Source: a virus
Direction: 5' to 3' (one strand)
Length of the DNA stretch: 64,000 nt
IMG/VR virus record: IMGVR_UViG_3300038701_001282
Span: 3,939 to 67,938 of that record
Below, piece after piece: positions 3,710 through 58,526 of the stretch. Within the stretch, counting starts at the first letter, position 1, and each line of letters starts with the position of its first letter. The notes beneath the pieces were generated by a model. That model ran no database searches, had not been told where the DNA came from, and saw only the letters and a program-made list of their open reading frames with translations. Position numbers and translations under genes: made by a program.

Positions 3710-4562
3710 TGTTTCCTCCTATATGTATGAATCTTGGTAAGATATTATACTCGTCATTCACTAGTTCACCTGGATATCCTACAGGGTTAGTTACAATCTT
3801 GCAACCCATAATTTCACAATCAACCTTATCGTGCGTATGTCCATAAATCCAATAAGTAGGTACTGAAAAAAGCGCTTCTGGCACCTTCGGTGTAAAGTAG
3901 GAGGAGAAGTTACTAGGCCCTCTGTATGGGGCAGCACACATCGGAGACGGAGGAAAGTGAGTTACAACAATCGTCTCTCCTTCAAAGTCTTCTACATCAT
4001 AATTACATTCTAGAGTGTCCTCGATAAATAGCAAGGACTCATTAAATAAAAATTGCATAGTATTTGCAGACATGGAGGTATTACTGGAATCATTTGTTCT
4101 TATCAACCTGAAATCAGATATGCCTGACTCGCAAGCAGCCATGTCTACTGGGTGGTTATTGAAATCTGTCCACAAAGTACTGCCAATTATCCTTACATGG
4201 TTGCCCCTAGAATCAACAAATATCTCATAGTCGTTATCTAATATATGAAGATTATCAAGTTTTCTGTACATCTGAAATTGATGAACATCTGCTATGAAGT
4301 TTAGAATATCTTTACCATAAAACTCGTGATTACCTAATACAAATACTACCTTCCAATACTCATCACAAAGGTTTGCCAGGTATGGGTACAACAAACTCTC
4401 CTCAGAGCAGATATCACCTGCCAATACTAGTATGGTTTCAGAATTATCGTCAATTTGGTATGTAGGTGGGTACCACATCCTTTTTGATCTGAACTCGTTA
4501 TGTATGTCTGAATAATACTCAATCTTCAAGGATAACCTCCCCTTTTTCAAGTAAATCTGCAA
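3699..4562 (-). CDS. calcineurin-like metallophosphoesterase
   Basis: SDIH, LAGD, GNHE, VVTHFPP, YGHTH motifs. Confidence 0.9.
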   Translation of the reverse strand: MQIYLKKGRLSLKIEYYSDIHNEFRSKRMWYPPTYQIDDNSETILVLAGDICSEESLLYPYLANLCDEYWKVVFVLGNHEFYGKDILNFIADVHQFQMYRKLDNLHILDNDYEIFVDSRGNHVRIIGSTLWTDFNNHPVDMAACESGISDFRLIRTNDSSNTSMSANTMQFLFNESLLFIEDTLECNYDVEDFEGETIVVTHFPPSPMCAAPYRGPSNFSSYFTPKVPEALFSVPTYWIYGHTHDKVDCEIMGCKIVTNPVGYPGELVNDEYNILPRFIHIGGNNEQ

Positions 4563-7120: not shown

Positions 7121-7198
7121 GTCCCTATAGCATAATTGGATTAATGCAGGAAATTTCTAATTTTCAGATTGGGGGTTCGAATCCCTCTAGGGACGCCA
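7121..7198 (+). tRNA. tRNA-Arg(TCT)
   Basis: full cloverleaf GTCCCTA/TAGGGAC, D arm GCAT/ATGC, anticodon loop TTTCTAA, T arm TTCGAAT, encoded CCA. Confidence 0.95.
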
Positions 7199-12138: not shown

Positions 12139-12327
12139 TCTGAGGTAGCTTAATGGTCATTATACTACTTTTTTAGCTAACTGGTAGTATAATGAAGTGA
12201 GGAGGTGTATTTAGAGTCGGAAGCTTGGTAGCTCCCTGCCTAAGACCAATAAAATACACTATCTATTCACTAGAGCGCTGGACGGTTAATCCAGAAGATG
12301 TAGGTTCGAATCCTGCCCTCAGCTCCA
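12139..12327 (+). tRNA. tRNA-Asn(GTT)-like gene interrupted by a 114-nt D-loop insertion
   Basis: 5' half TCTGAGG-TA-GCTT-AATGGT (12139-12157); 3' half AGAGC-G-CTGGA-CGGTTAA-TCCAG-AAGAT-GTAGG-TTCGAAT-CCTGC-CCTCAGC-T-CCA (12272-12327); halves pair in acceptor and D stems. Confidence 0.8.
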
Positions 12328-12341
12328 AACCTTTTAATTCT

Positions 12342-12460
12342 AAAGCACTTTTTCATGTTTTGAGCTATAAATTTCAGCTTTCAAACAGAAAATTAATTTT
12401 CGAATATAATATCAAAAAGCTTGATATCAAAAGCACTTTTTCATATTCTGAGTTGTAAAT
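12342..12460. repeat. 31-nt imperfect direct repeat (2 copies)
   Basis: 12342-12372 and 12430-12460, 27/31 identical, core AAAGCACTTTTTCAT. Confidence 0.8.
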
Positions 12461-16869: not shown

Positions 16870-18245
16870 TTAACAGACGAATCCACACCTGATGTTCTAC
16901 CCTTTACCTATACCAACCTACCACCTATATGCTAAAAGCCCCTCACGGGGCTTAGAATGCGTTCTAGTGCTATGCACTAAATATCCCCTTTATATTCCCT
17001 AGAATATAGTATTACTTTTATTACTACTAATTATGGTGGTATTAGACTTACATTGTATTAAGACTCTGTATGTAATACATACAATAGCATTAGTTTATGT
17101 ACTACGTACATATGATAGCTATTTATGATGAGTAATTATATCTTGATGGGTGCTATAATTGGTAAATTATGTTTAAGAGATGTATAATACTTGGTGTATT
17201 GTGTTTAGCACATTTCCCTTGCGTATGCAAGAAATCTTTCAATAATTCTTAGAATAATTACATTATTCATCTAATCCTTCTTATTTCTTACAGAAATATA
17301 CTAATCTAACCTAATATAAGCCCTTCTCAGAGCATTAATAATTATCTATGCCAATGCATAGGGTATAGCTATACCTACGCTTAGAGCGTATTACAGAGCT
17401 TAGGCATTGTGGTTACACAATAGAAGGGTGGCTATAAGATGAGATTAATATTAGGTAGGATTGGCTTACTTATTGCTTAGCAATATAAATAGGATAAGAA
17501 ACATACAGATAACGCAGTTGTACTGCGCATAATATCCATTATGTTAAATAGGTGATTTTTAAGTTATATACACTATGTTTCATAGTAGAAAATACTCTTA
17601 AAATACAGTGATATTTTATAATTATAGCTTGCTTTTGAGGTGTAGGTGTGGTAGTGCTAAGCACCAATCTTGTAAATTTATTGAATCCTTCAAAATATAA
17701 CCAACACACCATAGATTATTATTTCATGTCTAGAGACATAGATAGTGCTCTTAACTATAAGTCTAATACATACCAATATTGATATTTTTCAGATGTAATA
17801 TTATCGATAGATCGATAAAAGTGAGTTCAAAATTTTAAATTTTAGTATTAGAGTATGTCCTCGGACAGAGGACTAAAGGTAGGAATGATATATTGTATCA
17901 ATAACAGGTATATTTTAGTATTAGAACTAAAGTTCTAGTATACTCATACTAATATCTTAGATATTTTAGGATAGTACTACAAAAGATAGGTAATTCTCTG
18001 GGAATACAGCAAAATCAATATCTGGAGAGGAGCGTAGCGAGGATTTAGATATTGGGGCGCTGTTGGTAAAGGGTGGTATTATCGTTATAAACGATATTTT
18101 ATCTGTTATTTGGTTGTTTATTGTTGTTTCTTAAGTATTAGATTTGAGGTGAGGTGGTACTTTAGTATTATGTAGGGCAGGGAACACCCCTGTACAGCTC
18201 TCTCAGGGGCTTTATGTTGAAATAGGTAGGTTAGGTAGGGTTAGT
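16870..18245. other. about 1.4 kb non-coding, palindrome-dense region between convergent gene blocks (candidate origin or genome-terminus region)
   Basis: no ORF of 60 aa or more in the track; many short inverted repeats; related elements at both edges. Confidence 0.6.
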
Positions 18246-18246
18246 A

Positions 18247-18507
18247 TTAAAGTCCTTTAAGATACTCCAGCCTGCTTTTACCCGATATATTTTTAATAGC
18301 CCTCTCTAGGGCTTCCTCCCAACACCAAAGCCTGCTTCTACCTGCATATGTAAATCTAATTAGCGACTCACTACACAAATCGCAAGACCTTGAAAAGTCA
18401 TACTCGCTCAATATTCTGTCTATTTCGCTATACTTCCTTGCCTTAAAAAGCTCGGTTATTTTATTGCACATAGGCAATATATCTTTCATTTCAGTGTGTT
18501 TTTTCAT
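18247..18507 (-). CDS. hypothetical protein
   Basis: last ORF of the leftward block. Confidence 0.55.
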   Translation of the reverse strand: MKKHTEMKDILPMCNKITELFKARKYSEIDRILSEYDFSRSCDLCSESLIRFTYAGRSRLWCWEEALERAIKNISGKSRLEYLKGL

Positions 18508-18531
18508 GCGTCACTTCTTAGTTGCTATACA

Positions 18532-18698
18532 AGGTACTCTTGAGAGTTGTGCTGCACTGAGTCGAATCTAACTCTCAGTCCGTGTCGCTTTAGTAAAGAC
18601 TCGAATAACCTCGTCTGTTTTAGCTATCGGCCCCATCCGCTTATATCGGGGCATGCATTCGATTTACATGCTTTACAACACAACTCACAGGAATACCC
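18532..18698 (-). ncRNA. candidate structured ncRNA, element B
   Basis: 13-bp terminal stem GAGTTGTGTTGTA/TGCAGCACAACTC with G-U pairs valid only on minus strand, extendable to about 25 bp; several internal hairpins. Confidence 0.65.
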
Positions 18699-18707
18699 TG
18701 TTATTTA

Positions 18708-20184
18708 TTAAAAGTTTCTAAAACTAATCGCGCGCGTAATTTTTACATAAAATCTTGGAAGATTAGCAACGGCAATATCTGGTGCCAACCAAGGACTAAA
18801 TTCAAACCCAGTGCAACGATAACCTTTCTCTGGATTATGCTTTGGCGCAAACAGGCCAACATGAGTTCCACACCACCCTCGAAGCAACCCAGGAAATAAA
18901 AATATGGCTGTATACCTTACCTGCACTCTAAGTAGCGAGTTTTTACACTGGCCATCCATAACATTAAATTGAATACCAACCAAATAAGGAATATTAATAT
19001 CACTCATACATCACCTTTGTTTGTTGTTAAAAACAAATATCACAAGAGCAATACGATCGGTTGCCGCCACTTGCAATGCTTCCGCTTTCACAATTTTTTG
19101 AACCTTTGAATGAAGGTCCAAAGCTATAACTTGAAACTTTCCCAACATCAAAAAACTTTTTGCCATCTTCACTGTCACGATAGGGCTTGACGCACTCCTC
19201 ACAAACTAATGCCTCTCTATGCGATAGGTCTCCTTTTTTTGTGACTTTGTATTTTGCTTCATTTGTGCATTGGTTTCTATTTCCGCAACATTTCACAATC
19301 TACCCCTCCTCTTTGTTATCTAATACTGCATATAATGCGTGATCGTAGTCGGCTGGGTACGTGTGTCCATCGCATTGATATTTATGCTCTCGTATAGCCG
19401 CCTCTAGCTCTTTTATGCGCTTATCCTTCTCTGACTCTGGCTTTAATGCTTGCGCCTCGTCGTAAATCTCACGAGCTATACGTACAGCCCACTGGCTGAC
19501 GCGATCACATTCCACTATTATTTTTTCTTGTGCTTTGTAAAAATATTGGTCACTCATCACTTCACCGGCCTATTTAATTGTTCGTTTAGTTTCTTAATCT
19601 TGTTTAACGCTGTTTTATAACCTTCCTCTAAAGCAGCATTTCTATCAAGCGCCTTGTTTAATAATTCGCTTTCGAATAAACCTTTATCCATTACTTCATC
19701 CTCACTCATCGTAGAATTCCAATTGAGGACATACCTTAGCCTTCTTGGCTTTAATCCAAGCAACCAATAAGTTATCTTCTTTAGTTGTAGGTAACATGTT
19801 TTCCTGGCGTAGGTACTCTTCTTCTATCTTTCTTTTAGTTCTGATATCACTTAAGATGGCACCTAATAACATAACTAATATGAATCCTCCAGTAAGGGCA
19901 TGTACTTCCAGATCTTCAAAGAAAAACTGCAATAAGACTGTAGAAATAAGAAACAATACAAGACATACCACCACTATTCCTCCTAGAATTACAACCAAAC
20001 CTAGTACAACCTTCCAGAAGTAAAGGCATAAGCTATTAGGTACAATCTTAGGGCTGCATACAAGAGATGCTATTTTGTAGTGGATACTATTTTTATTTAT
20101 TTTCATTAGACTTCCTCTTAATAGTGATAACCTTAATTCTCTTTTTGTTGGCTTGGTTAGTGATATTATCTGTACCAGAGCCAC
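18708..20184 (-). other. small leftward hypothetical ORFs (18708-19007, 19027-19296, 19300-19560, 19557-19763, 19702-20184 membrane)
   Basis: packed ORFs; 19027-19296 Cys-rich; 19702-20184 has two TM segments. Confidence 0.55.
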
Positions 20185-20455: not shown

Positions 20456-22348
20456 TCGTTGTTAACCTCTAAGTCAGGCTCTTCTAAGAGTCTTTTTGCT
20501 ACGTCTCGGTAATGTTGAATAATATCTGTTAAGTGTAACGGAACTATGAAGTCATCACCAGGCACATTCTTATCAAAAGCTAGCTCACTACAAAACAGAA
20601 GGCCTCCAAAATCATTTCCCCATAGTTCAAGGTTTACTCTGGCCCAATCTTCAAGCTCAATATGATCTACAAACCCTAGTTTATCTGCAAGTATATCTGC
20701 CCCTTTTACGTAGAATTCATCCTTTCTTTCTAATTTCGTTGGAGAAATACTTGAGTACATTATTGCAGCCCAACCTCCATGGCAAGCTGGAGTGTCACAA
20801 AGATTTACTTCTTCTTCTCTTTTATCACAAGGTTCATCCATGTCTACTGCTGTTTCAGCTAAGTTATTTTTAATAACAAAGTCTTCAAAATCTTGTGCTA
20901 CTCGTAGAAACTTTCCTGCTAGCTCTTTATGTTTCATTTGTCTTCTCTCGTTGAGTTAAGGGCATCTGCCAATTCAATTAAACTGTCTACCATCTCTTGG
21001 TATATCATCTCTAATCTTACTTGAGGGTTCTTAACCCTATTTCGTATACCATCTATCTTAGCTTGTACATGACGAAGTTTCAATACTAATTTTGGATCAG
21101 CATTATCTATGATCTTCTCTACTTCTTCGTGGAGATATTCTAACTTATCTTCGTCAGACATGTCAAACAGTTCATCAAATGATTTCATAACTTACCTATC
21201 AATATTTCTAATTTCTTCAATTGATATTATACTTGATAGAGAATAGAGTTCAACATTACCATTATCGTCCATTAGTACCCGGTAACCTGAAGAATAATCT
21301 ATTACAGTGCCATATCTATTGTTAGAGCCTACTATCATAACCCTATCACCTTTGTTGTACTTACAAGCTGTAATTAATGCTACAATTGTTATTGCTATAA
21401 TAATTTTAATCATATCAATCTTCCATCCTGAATCCACTTATACCTACTAAATACCACATACTACCATCTGTAGATTTCTCAAACTCTACTACTCTCTCCT
21501 CTAACATTTGCACATCCACTTCTGGGTACATCTCAAAATGTCTGGGAGACTCTGGTATAACTACTTTAATTCTATCTTTACTTATACTCGAAGGATGTGG
21601 AGTTTCCTTCAGCGCCCAATACAACTCACCTGGAGTTATTCTAAATTTCATGATTTACTTACTCTGGCTAATAATAAGGTTGCTAGCTGTAATTGTTGGC
21701 TTTCAGCATCTGCTATAGACTTATCTAGTTTTCCTAGGGTAATATCAAAGGTGTCTTTTTCTTTTTCTCTTGTGTCGTCTGGAAGTAAATTATACATACT
21801 TTTCAAATTATCTCTACTTTGTTTAGCCAATCTGATTTCTGAACCTAGCCACTCTAATCTTAGTGTATGGCATTCGTCAGATTTAAAAGAATCTGTATCT
21901 TCTTTAAACTTAAAACACACAATGGTTACTATAACCAAGAAAAATAGTACAGCAACTGCAATAACTGTTATGTTTTCATAAATCATGATTAATCCTCCGT
22001 TGGTTTAGGTACACCATACACTTCATCTTTTAATCTTGCAAGAGTCTTTTCTAAATTATTTATATATTGAATGTTTTGTTTCTTATCCTTTGCTTGTCTT
22101 TCTAGAGATTCTTCTTCTGTTTCAAGCCTGTAAGCAACTAAATCAAATCTGATATCATCCCCATACTCTATGTATGCACATACATCAGTAGTTATATCTT
22201 GGTCTTGGGGTAGTGAATCTAAAAAATTATTTAGTGTATCACGTAAGTGTTTTACAGGGTTAGGGTTAAACTTCCCATATGAATTTGAATACTCATCCAA
22301 ATTTAGACTATCAGAGATTAATTTTACTCTTCTTTTAGCTTTGGTCAT
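20446..22348 (-). other. leftward hypothetical ORFs (20446-20937, 20934-21188, 21192-21437, 21415-21651, 21648-21986, 21989-22348)
   Basis: packed ORFs; 21192-21437 lipobox-like; 21648-21986 TM plus coiled coil. Confidence 0.6.
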
Positions 22349-22842
22349 TCAATTCTCCCGTGATTCTCATGAAATCCATATTTGTTCTCTGCTGATTTTC
22401 TTGCACAACAAGCTTCAAAGAAGTCCTCATAACTCCCTATGTAATTTTTCTTCCCTATAGTAACTTCATAGCTAGTGCGTTCAGTCCTCTTCCTGACCCC
22501 AGATATACCAGTCTTATTTCTTTGATCTAGTTTCTTGTTACGATTATTAGCATTAAAATCAGCTTCACGAAGATTTTTAATTATATTATTTCCTGGATTA
22601 CCGTCTATATGGTCTATATGAGATCCTGTTTGATAGCCATAGTGTAAAAACCAAACAACTCTATGCACTTTATACTGACTGCCATTATATTGCAATACTC
22701 TATATCCATAGGAATCTGTAGTTCCTGCCATATCACCTTTTTGAGCCATACTGTTAATTGATTTAGTCCAACGTAAATCTCCATTCTCTGGATTATAATC
22801 AAGCAAGTCTTTTAATTCTTCTGGTATAGGCTTAGCTTTCAT
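22345..22842 (-). CDS. HNH endonuclease with AP2-like C-terminus
   Basis: YKVHRVVW...IDHIDGNPGNNIIKNLR; NKTGISGV...IGSY..FFEACCARKSAE. Confidence 0.9.
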   Translation of the reverse strand: MKAKPIPEELKDLLDYNPENGDLRWTKSINSMAQKGDMAGTTDSYGYRVLQYNGSQYKVHRVVWFLHYGYQTGSHIDHIDGNPGNNIIKNLREADFNANNRNKKLDQRNKTGISGVRKRTERTSYEVTIGKKNYIGSYEDFFEACCARKSAENKYGFHENHGRIE

Positions 22843-23239
22843 TATAAAACTCTCTATTCAATAGTTCAGGGTTAGCATAGATATTACCAATTACAGTTAT
22901 ACCTTCATTAATGTCTAAGGCATACCCATACCCAACAGCTCTGGTTGTAGGTAGAACTTCATAAGATGCATCAAAATCATTCCAAATTATCTGACATATA
23001 ATGTACTTCTTGATGTCATGATCATACATCTTAACAATGTCACCGTCGTATATTTCAGTGCCATTCTTATCTTCTTTGCCAGTCCACTCTACTGTAGGTA
23101 AGTGTGTAATCTCCTGCCTACCATTAAACACATGGGCCAGTACTTCACCATCCCTGACAAAATAACCCACCTGCTTGCTAGATTGCATCATAATACCTTT
23201 CTCAGCATTCCAGGCTCTAACTTTGGTTACTTTAGGCAT
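22832..23239 (-). CDS. YopX family protein
   Basis: KVRAW...TGKEDKNGTEIYDGDIV...VIGNIYANPELL. Confidence 0.85.
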   Translation of the reverse strand: MPKVTKVRAWNAEKGIMMQSSKQVGYFVRDGEVLAHVFNGRQEITHLPTVEWTGKEDKNGTEIYDGDIVKMYDHDIKKYIICQIIWNDFDASYEVLPTTRAVGYGYALDINEGITVIGNIYANPELLNREFYNES

Positions 23240-23396
23240 TTATCACTCCCCTGAAGAATCTTTTGCATACTTCCACTCAACCATACGACCAATAGGTTCT
23301 CTGCTGTCAAAACACTCTTCCCATTCTTGTCGTTCAGGATTTCTGCCTACAATGTACTCACCATCTTGTGGTAATCCATCTTCAACTTTATTCCAT

Positions 23397-23852
23397 TCAC
23401 TCATTTATCAAATCCTTGTTTTCGTAGATGTTACCGATTACCTGAATCTTATTTCTATGGAAAGTTGTCATGAAGTAAGGCTCATATTTTGTACTAGAAC
23501 CACTCCTACCAAAAGGCCTGCCATTGTCATTTAGTCCCCAGACTCCCCATTCTTTAAAAAATCTAACTTCAAATAATTTTTCCTTGTTACTGTTTCCGTA
23601 TTGAACAATATCTCCTTCATAAATATCTTTACCATTCTTATCTTTGAGGTCTGTGTATTCCATTAGTTCAAATTTAGTCTGATTATCTTCGTCAAATGTT
23701 GGATCATCTAAACTAGACCAGCCAGTGCTAAAATAAACATCACTGCCAGAAAATAATATTCCTTCTTTTGCTGAATCAAATAACCTCATTCTTTTATTGG
23801 CATAATCCCATGCTCGAAATTTAATTTCCCTACTCATAATAGATTTCCTCAA
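23397..23852 (-). CDS. YopX family protein
   Basis: REIKFRAWD...YTDLKDKNGKDIYEGDIV...VIGNIYENKDLI. Confidence 0.9.
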   Translation of the reverse strand: MRKSIMSREIKFRAWDYANKRMRLFDSAKEGILFSGSDVYFSTGWSSLDDPTFDEDNQTKFELMEYTDLKDKNGKDIYEGDIVQYGNSNKEKLFEVRFFKEWGVWGLNDNGRPFGRSGSSTKYEPYFMTTFHRNKIQVIGNIYENKDLINE

Positions 23853-27828: not shown

Positions 27829-28068
27829 TTATTTCTTTGTTCGTCTTGTTCTCAGCCCTTTTTGGGGAAGATCTATATCTTCAACACCGGAAAGCCAAAA
27901 TAAAATCTCATTAGCTCCTGCTGGAGAATCATTAAACCGTCCTAGGTCGCTATTAAAATAAGATCCCCCTCTTTGCATCTCCAGGCTATACGGGGAAGCC
28001 CATAAAACAAGATAGAAACCGTTTTCCTTAGGCTTATCTTCGTCTATAAAAACCCATTCCACTTCCAT
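27829..28068 (-). CDS. DUF551-like small protein
   Basis: EWV.IDEDKPKENGFYLV...W pattern. Confidence 0.55.
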   Translation of the reverse strand: MEVEWVFIDEDKPKENGFYLVLWASPYSLEMQRGGSYFNSDLGRFNDSPAGANEILFWLSGVEDIDLPQKGLRTRRTKK

Positions 28069-28145
28069 CCCACTTCCTCCTACTGGTTAATATCTGGGTT
28101 TAAATTTATATCTTCCATACATCACCTCTTGTTTATAAGTAAATT

Positions 28146-28298
28146 GGTGTTATGTGCTGCGGATTGAATTGAACTAACTTCACAATAACTATCACGCTTG
28201 GCTAACGCTCTTAGTCTGCTACCCAGACGACAGAAATAGTTTTGATTTTAGAGCCGGTTAAGCACAAAACTTTAGATCTGCCCACAACACATAACACC
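28146..28298 (-). ncRNA. candidate structured ncRNA, element A (paralogue of element B)
   Basis: 17-bp terminal stem GGTGTTATGTGTTGTGG/CCGCAGCACATAACACC with two G-U pairs on minus strand; internal hairpins AGTTTTG/CAAAACT and GTCTG/CAGAC. Confidence 0.7.
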
Positions 28299-28305
28299 TA
28301 TTTGC

Positions 28306-28491
28306 CTAATAATTAGGAGAGCCCACACAAAGAAAAACGATCTCACCTTGCGAAGTTTGAGTTTCCAAAATATCACCAAAAATTCGATTGCCAGCATCGT
28401 CATCGCAAGTGCTTACATCTACAGATACAGTTAATTCGTAATCTGGAAGATCTAATAATATTTTTGCTAGTTCGTGCGCTTTCATATTCAT
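28306..28491 (-). CDS. hypothetical protein
   Basis: MKAHELAKILLDLPD, common phage small-protein start. Confidence 0.6.
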   Translation of the reverse strand: MNMKAHELAKILLDLPDYELTVSVDVSTCDDDAGNRIFGDILETQTSQGEIVFLCVGSPNY

Positions 28492-28502
28492 ATCCTATTT
28501 GC

Positions 28503-28715
28503 CTATTTAAAATCAGCACATGCACCTGCTATGTAATTCTCTTGGTAATGTGGCTTTCTATTTAAAAACTTTTTATATTGGCATGTTCGCTTTTCTTGGT
28601 GGGTAGCCTTGCATGATTTTGAGCAAAACTTGCCCCAACCTCTTTTTCTGTCTGCAACTCTGGCCATGAATAATTCACCGCATTGCTTACATTTAACTTC
28701 CACTTTTTGTGGCAT
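28503..28715 (-). CDS. small zinc-finger protein
   Basis: CKQCG...RKRGWGKFCSKSCKA. Confidence 0.7.
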   Translation of the reverse strand: MPQKVEVKCKQCGELFMARVADRKRGWGKFCSKSCKATHQEKRTCQYKKFLNRKPHYQENYIAGACADFK

Positions 28716-28987
28716 ATTTATAGCCTATTTACCTATTTTTCAGTACGCGCCATAAAACCCATAACCCCCAAAGCGCAAGGCATGTCGGGCCGTAATAGCT
28801 GGAAATAAAATCAATCATTCTTTACTGCCTCTTATCGGCAGGGGTTATAAATTCTTTTCGAAGCTTCTTGTTGACTTCACGAATCCAAGAACTGTTAGCG
28901 CGCCTCTGCTTTAAGACATATTTACTATGCCGAAGCTTTGCTTTAACGTGTTCATTCATAATCTCCACATTATTCTCCTACAAACTG

Positions 28988-58473: not shown

Positions 58474-58526
58474 GTCCTACCTCGAAAGCCTCTTAATAAT
58501 GCTCAAACTTCGGGGTAGGCATTTTA
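58474..58526 (+). terminator. large-loop hairpin after tube gene
   Basis: CCTACCTCGAA/TTCGGGGTAGG 11-bp stem then ATTTT. Confidence 0.45.

Follow-up and report, generated by a model that had tools for sequence, protein, structure and literature searches.

The stretch of viral DNA considered here, 64,000 nucleotides (nt) spanning positions 3,939 to 67,938 of the IMG/VR record IMGVR_UViG_3300038701_001282 (hereafter, the window), carries two intergenic elements, A and B, which have been confirmed as real, strand-biased and non-coding paralogous structured elements. Each is closed from end to end by a long, nearly perfect duplex, and both stand between small genes of a single minus-strand gene block. 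Their comparison revealed a series of compensatory changes which keep this duplex paired, around an inner core which is identical in A and B. On the basis of this architecture, we propose, with a rough probability of 0.4, that A and B are structured RNAs embedded in an operon and that their long duplex is an RNase III-type processing site from which a branched RNA would be released.

Architecture of Element A

Element A was first pointed out in an initial annotation, made from the sequence without database searches, as an intergenic RNA closed by a 17-base-pair (bp) stem containing two G-U pairs. This stem is indeed seen on the minus strand, where its two strands are GGUGUUAUGUGUUGUGG (5′ end) and CCGCAGCACAUAACACC (3′ end), and it is part of a longer helix. 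Counted without gaps, 25 of 27 positions are paired, and the element extends over 173 nt of the minus strand, from 28136 to 28308. The minus-strand interval 28303-28141 (163 nt) has a predicted minimum free energy (MFE) of -50.3 kcal/mol, corresponding to z = -4.2 against 200 dinucleotide shuffles. Three or four hairpins had been described inside A, and the predicted fold has four enclosed by the stem. The element had also been described as beginning within a few nt of the upstream stop codon; in its extended form, the 5′ arm opens with this codon itself, the TAG (28308-28306) of an upstream open reading frame (ORF) of 61 amino acids (aa). By contrast, the GCA..TAAA..TGC first arm proposed for both elements is not the preferred fold in A, the alternative reaching -34 kcal/mol versus -48.8 kcal/mol. 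The parts of A are as follows.

28136..28308, minus strand: element A in full, extended closing duplex included; 25 of 27 positions paired, an inverted repeat, fold z = -4.2
28282..28308, minus strand: 5′ arm of the closing duplex; begins with the stop codon TAG, and its outer 12 nt are the gene-junction motif TAGGCAAATAGG
28284..28291, minus strand: 5′ strand of the core, UGUGUUGU; forms two G-U pairs with GCAGCACA at 28153-28160
28187..28281, minus strand: variable interior; three more hairpins, without alignment to B
28163..28186, minus strand: 3′-proximal hairpin P4; AUUGUG/UUCAAU stem and 12-nt loop AAGUUAGUUCAA, adjoining the 3′ strand of the duplex
28136..28162, minus strand: 3′ arm of the closing duplex
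28153..28160, minus strand: 3′ strand of the core, GCAGCACA

The outer end of the 5′ arm belongs to a recurring sequence. The 12-mer TAGG(C/T)AAATAGG is present in three minus-strand copies 200-230 nt apart (28724-28735, 28494-28505 and 28297-28308), the first two located 10 nt ahead of gene starts and the third forming the outer 5′ arm of A. This 12-mer looks like a shared cassette junction or a translation-initiation sequence. Since the outer 12 nt of the 5′ arm also precede two upstream gene starts, A seems to occupy a "gene slot", and the pairing of its 3′ arm with a pre-existing junction sequence can be read as selection for a long duplex.

Element B and Covariation of the Closing Duplex

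Element B covers 171 nt. On its upstream side, a 99-aa ORF ends, and the 5′ arm begins 7 nt past its stop codon; on the downstream side, 22 nt separate the end of the 3′ arm from the ATG of an 86-aa ORF. Its parts are as follows.

18530..18700, minus strand: element B in full, paralogue of A; 25 of 27 positions paired, 22.7 bits in the covariance search described below, fold z = -3.1 to -3.8
18674..18700, minus strand: 5′ arm of the closing duplex; core UGUGUUGU at 18675-18682
18556..18579, minus strand: 3′-proximal hairpin P4; ACUGAG/CUCAGU stem and 12-nt loop AGUUAGAUUCGA
18530..18556, minus strand: 3′ arm of the closing duplex; core GCAGCACA at 18548-18555

That A and B have a closing-stem core in common, as initially claimed, was borne out: the 8-bp core UGUGUUGU/GCAGCACA is identical in both, including its two G-U pairs (U-A, G-C, U-A, G-C, U-G, U-A, G-C, U-G). 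The MAFFT alignment of A and B puts this core out of register, and the duplexes were compared by registering them on the core. In this register, nine positions (-17, -11, -10, -9, -7, -3, -2, -1 and +8) show compensatory double changes, two show one-sided changes which keep the pair, and 12 pairs are identical. The position -8 mismatch, eight positions outside the core, is common to both elements (A-A in A, C-A in B), and each duplex has one further mismatch of its own. In the outer 17-18 bp, pairing is thus kept between A and B but sequence is not.

The last arm is the other conserved part. The AGUUAG(A)UUCRA sequence, which had been noticed in both elements, forms the 12-nt loop of P4 on a 6-bp stem, and this stem carries one compensatory change between A and B, from U-A to C-G. 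The likeness of this arm to a T-loop, suggested at the same time, does not go beyond the pentanucleotide UUCRA. The remaining three interior arms of A and B are comparable in number but differ in size and order. No shared interior structure was found among approximately 7,000 gap placements scored with RNAalifold, and forcing a B-like fold on A costs 15 kcal/mol. Loop-loop complementarity amounts to 6 bp in B and 5 bp in A, involves differing parts of the loops and is near chance expectation.

A and B are too dissimilar for BLAST to align them, the same holds for their flanks, and the proteins encoded on either side of A are unrelated to those around B, which indicates that the duplication is old. 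A and B are thus old paralogues which have retained pairing, stem length and core while their sequence drifted.

Statistical Support, Strand Bias and Non-coding Status

The closing duplexes stand out in the whole window. When both strands were scanned for ungapped 27-position stems with spans of 111-300 nt, the top place was taken by B and the next by A, each on the minus strand. A composite pattern made of UGUGUUGU, 90-118 nt, AGUUAG, 8-20 nt and GCAGCACA occurs exactly twice in the window and not once in 100 shuffles. In addition, a covariance model made from A alone, called R1, scores B at 22.7 bits (E = 2.8e-4), its top match after A and the reverse strand of A. The next match (E = 0.58) falls within an ORF, and R1 found no third copy in the window or in the other 8.5 kilobases (kb) of the 72.5-kb record.

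All surrounding genes have the minus strand as their sense strand, and it is also the strand which folds best. A has an MFE of -48.8 kcal/mol on the minus strand and -40.3 kcal/mol on the plus strand (z = -4.2 versus -3.6), while the corresponding values for B are -47.0 and -37.2 kcal/mol (z = -3.8 versus -1.8). The strand-specific RNA signature put forward in the initial annotation is therefore apparent both in this minus-strand advantage, which is about 9 kcal/mol in each element, and in the asymmetry of the duplexes, where seven G-U pairs become A-C on the plus strand and only two C-A mismatches become G-U.

Stop codons are found in every frame through A and B. The mini-ORFs which start in the 5′ arms have 6 and 15 codons, and they read the conserved core in different frames. 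The GC content of the elements (0.42-0.46) is higher than that of the other gaps of the gene block (0.21-0.41), which are unstructured on the minus strand (z > -1.5).

Genomic Context

The source record is estimated to be 44% complete. Its TerL protein shares no more than 44% identity with its counterparts in Pseudoalteromonas phage H101 and several Vibrio phages (130-139 kb). From approximately 39.4 kb down to 17.5 kb, the window contains a tightly packed block of minus-strand genes, headed by that of an M23 peptidase, which also encode both subunits of ribonucleotide reductase, PhoH, thymidylate synthase and two metallophosphatases; the rest of the block consists of about 40 small orphan ORFs and an HNH endonuclease. 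The genes next to A and B are orphan ORFs of 61-99 aa. The elements are present at 2 of the approximately 55 gene junctions, and the next ribosome-binding site lies 6-22 nt past the stem. From the 86-aa ORF to the M23 peptidase gene, no other gap is as long as those which contain A (237 nt) and B (200 nt), and longer ones are found only in a convergent zone below 18.2 kb.

No sigma-70-like promoter was found at A or B. Between 27500 and 29000, there are no matches to such promoters on either strand, versus 4.6 +/- 2.3 expected from shuffles, which is consistent with read-through transcription in this region. Similarly, no intrinsic terminator, defined as a GC-rich hairpin followed by a U tract, is present at A, and no U run follows either 3′ arm. 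The sole terminator candidate on the transcribed strand of B is a 15-nt hairpin (18687-18701) at its 5′ edge, before the element, and the number of terminator candidates is near the shuffled level. A plain terminator, which had been named as an outcome that would undo the RNA interpretation, is thus not what was found. With neither promoter nor terminator at the elements, discrete RNAs, if any, must be cut from a polycistronic transcript. The tRNA genes of the window (at 7121, 12139 and 40609) are on the plus strand, opposite to A and B and 6-21 kb away from them.

Several neighbouring genes of the block deserve mention. Between A and the following 79-aa ORF lies a 12-codon ORF (MEDINLNPDINQ; 28069-28120, minus strand) with AAGAGG as a strong ribosome-binding site; over 40 nt, its initiation region shares 77% identity with the one of the 99-aa ORF located upstream of B. 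At 28503-28715 (minus strand), 200 nt upstream of A, is encoded a 70-aa protein with CxxC and FCSKSCK motifs, a zinc-ribbon or FCS-like finger. It has no Pfam match; its 37 relatives (49-75% identical) come from IMG/VR contigs, some of them records of 296-517 kb. Midway through the small-ORF array, between A and B, the minus-strand interval 22345-23852 contains the HNH endonuclease gene (phrog_99, E = 1e-54) and, after it, two paralogous genes of phrog_98, whose function is unknown.

A Possible RNase III-Type Processing Site

The idealised substrate of Escherichia coli RNase III is a helix of 22 bp, i.e., two helical turns, in which mismatches direct single-strand cuts (PMC3867540). With 25 pairs over 27 positions, the duplexes of both A and B are in the range of such substrates (about 22 bp or more, isolated mismatches being tolerated), and since they exceed the length of the ideal substrate, release by RNase III is plausible. 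No RNase III gene was found in the phage record, and the enzyme would thus have to be supplied by the host.

In the mechanism that we favour, the A and B modules would be co-transcribed in a long leftward operon which extends from the genes for ribonucleotide reductase, PhoH and thymidylate synthase into an array of dozens of small orphans. Each module would comprise an end duplex of about 25 bp over 27 positions, with its invariant 8-bp inner core and its -8 mismatch, the conserved P4 hairpin predicted to stack on the 3′ strand of this duplex, and a free interior of about 95 nt folded into three more hairpins. Host RNase III would cut the long duplex to yield a stable branched RNA of about 120-150 nt. 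The same cuts would divide the polycistronic mRNA: the upstream message would keep part of the stem at its 3′ end, and a short leader would remain before the next ribosome-binding site.

Both halves of this scheme have precedents. Cells release their ribosomal RNA through paired flanks, and phage T7 segments its early mRNA through duplexes located between cistrons. Like A and B, the RNase III sites of T7 early mRNA are inter-cistron duplexes of at least 22 bp, with isolated mismatches, in a polycistronic phage transcript. The stems of 16S and 23S precursors likewise result from pairing between the flanks of a structured RNA, but they enclose RNAs of kilobase size.

Four points weigh against this proposal. 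Known RNase III sites in mRNA, such as those of T7, are plain hairpins of about 60 nt without the 120-nt branched interior of A and B. Cleavage by RNase III does not account for the invariant 8-bp core and the 12-nt loop, which look rather as if a specific protein bound there. Folding is significant on the plus strand of A as well (z = -3.6 to -4.2), so that an inverted repeat acting at the DNA level is possible. Finally, since no homologue was found outside the contig in the collections searched, covariation is provided solely by the two sequences of the paralogue pair.

As RNase III alone leaves the core, the fixed mismatch and the 12-nt loop unexplained, an additional and specific binding partner may, speculatively, be invoked. 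Extended in this way, the model would define a new class of phage RNAs in which a fixed platform, made up of the 27-position duplex with its G-U-containing core and fixed mismatch and of the stacked P4 hairpin, carries an interchangeable branched payload, is excised by a double-strand-specific nuclease from early mRNA and is bound by a dedicated host or phage protein, an extension which we hold to be rather doubtful. That such a platform-bound RNA could be, for instance, a decoy or a sponge for a host RNA-binding or defence factor is pure speculation.

Relation to Known RNA and DNA Elements

In form, the closest precedent for A and B appears to be the small stable RNAs which phages T4 and T5 have long been known to make and whose function is unknown, although without detectable homology. 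T5 RNAI, RNAIII, RNAIV and RNA2H and T4 rnaC and rnaD are, like A and B, phage-encoded, 103-172 nt long and several per genome, RNA2H (172 nt) having the very size of A and B. According to their annotation and folds, they too have an end-to-end helix and three to four internal hairpins. They are annotated as processed from longer transcripts, a step which in A and B would be performed at the closing duplex. In contrast to A and B, which lie among protein genes, the T4 and T5 RNAs sit within tRNA clusters; their closing helices have 8-12 bp versus 25 in A and B, and rnaC, RNA1 and RNA2 have a true GGUUCGAAUCC T arm, unlike A and B. R1 gave no significant match in the T4 locus (at most 6.6 bits) or in the T5 locus (at most 10.5 bits), with nothing on rnaC, rnaD, RNA1, RNA2 or RNA2H and 9.4 bits (E = 0.2) on RNAIII.

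The initial annotation had considered that A might mimic a tRNA elbow, and this idea did not survive. Neither the tRNA model RF00005 nor ARAGORN, at its default or at a relaxed 90% threshold, gave a match. At 80%, ARAGORN reports a cloverleaf in A, which is at noise level, the window containing 35 such matches versus 21 in a shuffle. A 9-mer of A, GUUCAAUUC, fits the T-loop consensus; however, a T stem would have three of five pairs in A and no Watson-Crick pair out of five in B (at most one U-G wobble), whereas the stem that the two elements do have in common is of 6 bp with a 12-nt loop, unlike the 5-bp stem and 7-nt loop (GUUCRANNC) of a T arm. Furthermore, the elements have no D arm and no 7-bp acceptor end, the helix runs 17-18 bp past the acceptor-like core and there is no CCA.

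Y RNAs, which are bound by Rsr/Ro60 proteins, resemble A and B in having a long terminal stem, a conserved imperfect protein-binding segment and a variable branched module, but a tRNA-like module is not recognisable in A or B. The YrlA/YrlB identity was rejected for want of an Rfam match at E<=10, a search which covers YrlA and Y_RNA if they are in the copy used, and no TROVE/Ro60 domain (PF05731) was found in the 72.5-kb, 44%-complete record, positive controls responding as they should. The phi29 pRNA was rejected on the same basis (no Rfam match, if the family is in the copy), this phage having a packaging motor of the terminase type.

Among DNA elements, miniature inverted-repeat transposable elements (MITEs) and integron attC sites are, like A and B, short, intergenic and imperfect inverted repeats located behind small gene cassettes. 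In attC sites, as in A and B, structure is more conserved than sequence and one strand is specifically used. A MITE or another element with terminal inverted repeats was nevertheless rejected, as the outer termini of A and B are their least conserved part, no target-site duplication is present and the flanks are dissimilar; attC was rejected because the core sites RYYYAAC...GTTRRRY, as read from the sequence, are absent in the expected orientation. A retron msr-msd was dismissed since the record has no RVT_1 domain and the neighbours are orphan ORFs, an intron since the stop codons stay in frame once the element is removed, a riboswitch since a P1 helix of 25 bp could not switch, and a type I toxin mRNA since the mini-ORFs are not conserved.

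Search for Relatives

No relative of A or B has been found so far. As initially stated, no Rfam family is recognisable: in Rfam 15, there is no match even at E<=10 in 27900-28500 or 18300-18900, and a search of the whole window at gathering thresholds returned only tRNAs and abiF, both elsewhere. With BLAST, neither A and B nor the 3 kb around them matched any of approximately 50,000 phage GenBank records. The adjacent genes are equally isolated. The 61-aa ORF and a 160-aa ORF (membrane-protein-like, phrog_944) are singletons among 5.8 billion proteins, the 79-aa ORF has one match, which is of high GC content and spurious, and a 213-aa ORF and TerL have no relatives in IMG/VR.

Building a covariance model and searching phage genomes with it had been suggested from the outset; the model recovered B and found nothing in the other genomes searched. 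R1 gave no match in the loci of the 37 relatives of the 70-aa zinc-ribbon ORF, in the five nearest phages (TerL 38-44% identical) or in 151 genomes of the marine gammaproteobacterial order which contains Shewanella. Seven scans with four patterns were run over viral contigs, metagenome contigs and approximately 185,000 prokaryote species (one genome each). They returned 16 matches in total, about the number expected by chance, none of which was scored by R1 at its position; three early ones had fold z of only -0.6 to -1.9, and two were in coding sequence. A search for analogues of the long-range stem in phages H101 and 1.101.O found only inverted repeats which do not resemble A and B, being either AT-rich or coding. 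The power of these searches is limited, R1 being a single-sequence model and the large collections having been scanned by exact patterns only. The claim of a new phage non-coding RNA family thus stands as far as an uncatalogued paralogous pair is concerned, no members having been found beyond this contig.

Alternative Explanations

Instead of being excised, A and B could act in cis as part of the mRNA, their stable in-place fold forming a barrier or an insulator. This barrier could shield the upstream message against 3′ exonucleases, block 5′-end-dependent scanning by RNase E or uncouple the translation of successive cistrons. Such roles would suit elements which lie within a polycistronic block without promoter or terminator, whose 5′ arm begins at (A) or 7 nt past (B) a stop codon and whose 3′ arm is soon followed by a ribosome-binding site. 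The unrelated genes which flank A and B would moreover point to a module independent of gene identity. However, a simple hairpin would suffice for this purpose, and the core, the shared mismatch, the 12-nt loop and the lengths of 171 and 173 nt would remain unexplained, as would the presence of the element at so few gene junctions. We consider this explanation unlikely. A role at the DNA level, either as a folded single-stranded site for recombination or replication or as a MITE-like mobile cassette with inverted repeats, would account for two intergenic copies with inverted repeats at both ends, for the "gene slot" taken up by A, whose 12-mer junction is the one found ahead of two neighbouring genes, and for the folding of its plus strand; HNH endonuclease genes are also found in the block. 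Yet the inner 8 bp are conserved whereas the outer 17-18 bp keep only their pairing, the opposite of what is expected of transposase-bound termini. The lack of target-site duplication, of similarity between the flanks and of attC core sites in the expected orientation, together with the absence of any transposase, integrase or reverse transcriptase gene nearby, also argues against mobility, and the G-U/A-C asymmetry and the energy difference, about 9 kcal/mol, are both in favour of the operon's sense strand. Action as DNA is, in our opinion, quite unlikely.

It could also be envisaged that A and B are protein-binding mimics of the tRNA top-half or Y-RNA type, with the core and P4 as a platform, the interior as a swappable insert and a tRNA-handling enzyme or a Ro60-like protein as partner. 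The combination of a conserved platform and a variable interior is that of Y RNAs, P4 adjoins the closing helix on its 3′ strand, in the manner of a T arm, with UUCRA in its loop and the T-loop-like 9-mer in A, and the phage itself carries tRNAs and an interrupted tRNA-Asn-like gene. The results detailed above nevertheless make such mimicry very unlikely: there is no match to tRNA or to any other Rfam family at E<=10, the relaxed ARAGORN match is noise, the T stem is not formable in B, the 3′ CCA and, in the 72.5-kb record, a TROVE/Ro60 protein are missing, R1 matches neither T4 rnaC/rnaD nor the T5 RNAs, and the elements lie far from the tRNA genes, on the other strand. As for A and B being decaying remnants of a duplicated sequence, devoid of current function and folded by accident, it would agree with two copies on one orphan contig, without homologues and with interiors that do not align. 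It is, however, hardly credible in view of the nine compensatory double changes which hold a 25-pair duplex together despite divergence beyond BLAST detection, of ranks 1 and 2 among long-range stems, and of the near-equal lengths and shared mismatch position.

Other Structured Features of the Record

Downstream of B, the convergent zone (16900-18200) has gaps of 691 and 534 nt and several structured 150-nt windows, one at 16925-17074 (plus strand, z = -4.3) and two at 17300-17449 and 17825-17974 (both strands, z = -3.6 to -4.8), as well as a long-range stem with 24 of 27 positions paired at 17362-17658 (plus strand). These structures could be bidirectional terminators or further RNA genes.

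The interrupted tRNA-Asn-like gene is at 12139-12324 (plus strand), where 186 nt match the Rfam tRNA model over its full length (39 bits) and include a long structured insert, called as a 92-nt insert by ARAGORN when introns are allowed. This insert was considered as a possible relative of A and B and is unrelated to them. A stem with 24 of 27 positions paired and a span of about 120 nt (12314-12435, minus strand) overlaps the 3′ end of this gene.

In the late, structural region, an abiF RNA motif (RF03085) is present at 58480-58516 (plus strand), with 44.6 bits for a gathering score of 37. This motif is normally located upstream of abortive-infection abiF genes, and its phage copy might be an antitoxin or a defence mimic.

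Significance

A and B are an uncatalogued structured pair belonging to the poorly understood class of small structured phage RNAs. Given that they come from an uncultured marine orphan phage without relatives in current databases, their practical value is limited for now. To the stable RNAs of the T4 and T5 type, they bring a sequence-unrelated addition with a clear anatomy, a conserved platform and a free interior, and an unusual placement, in a protein-coding early operon and not in a tRNA cluster. If the closing duplex is indeed an RNase III site, this phage would excise a structured RNA from its mRNA as cells excise rRNA, and the conservation of the core and the loop would then suggest a specific binding partner, which it would be worthwhile to find.

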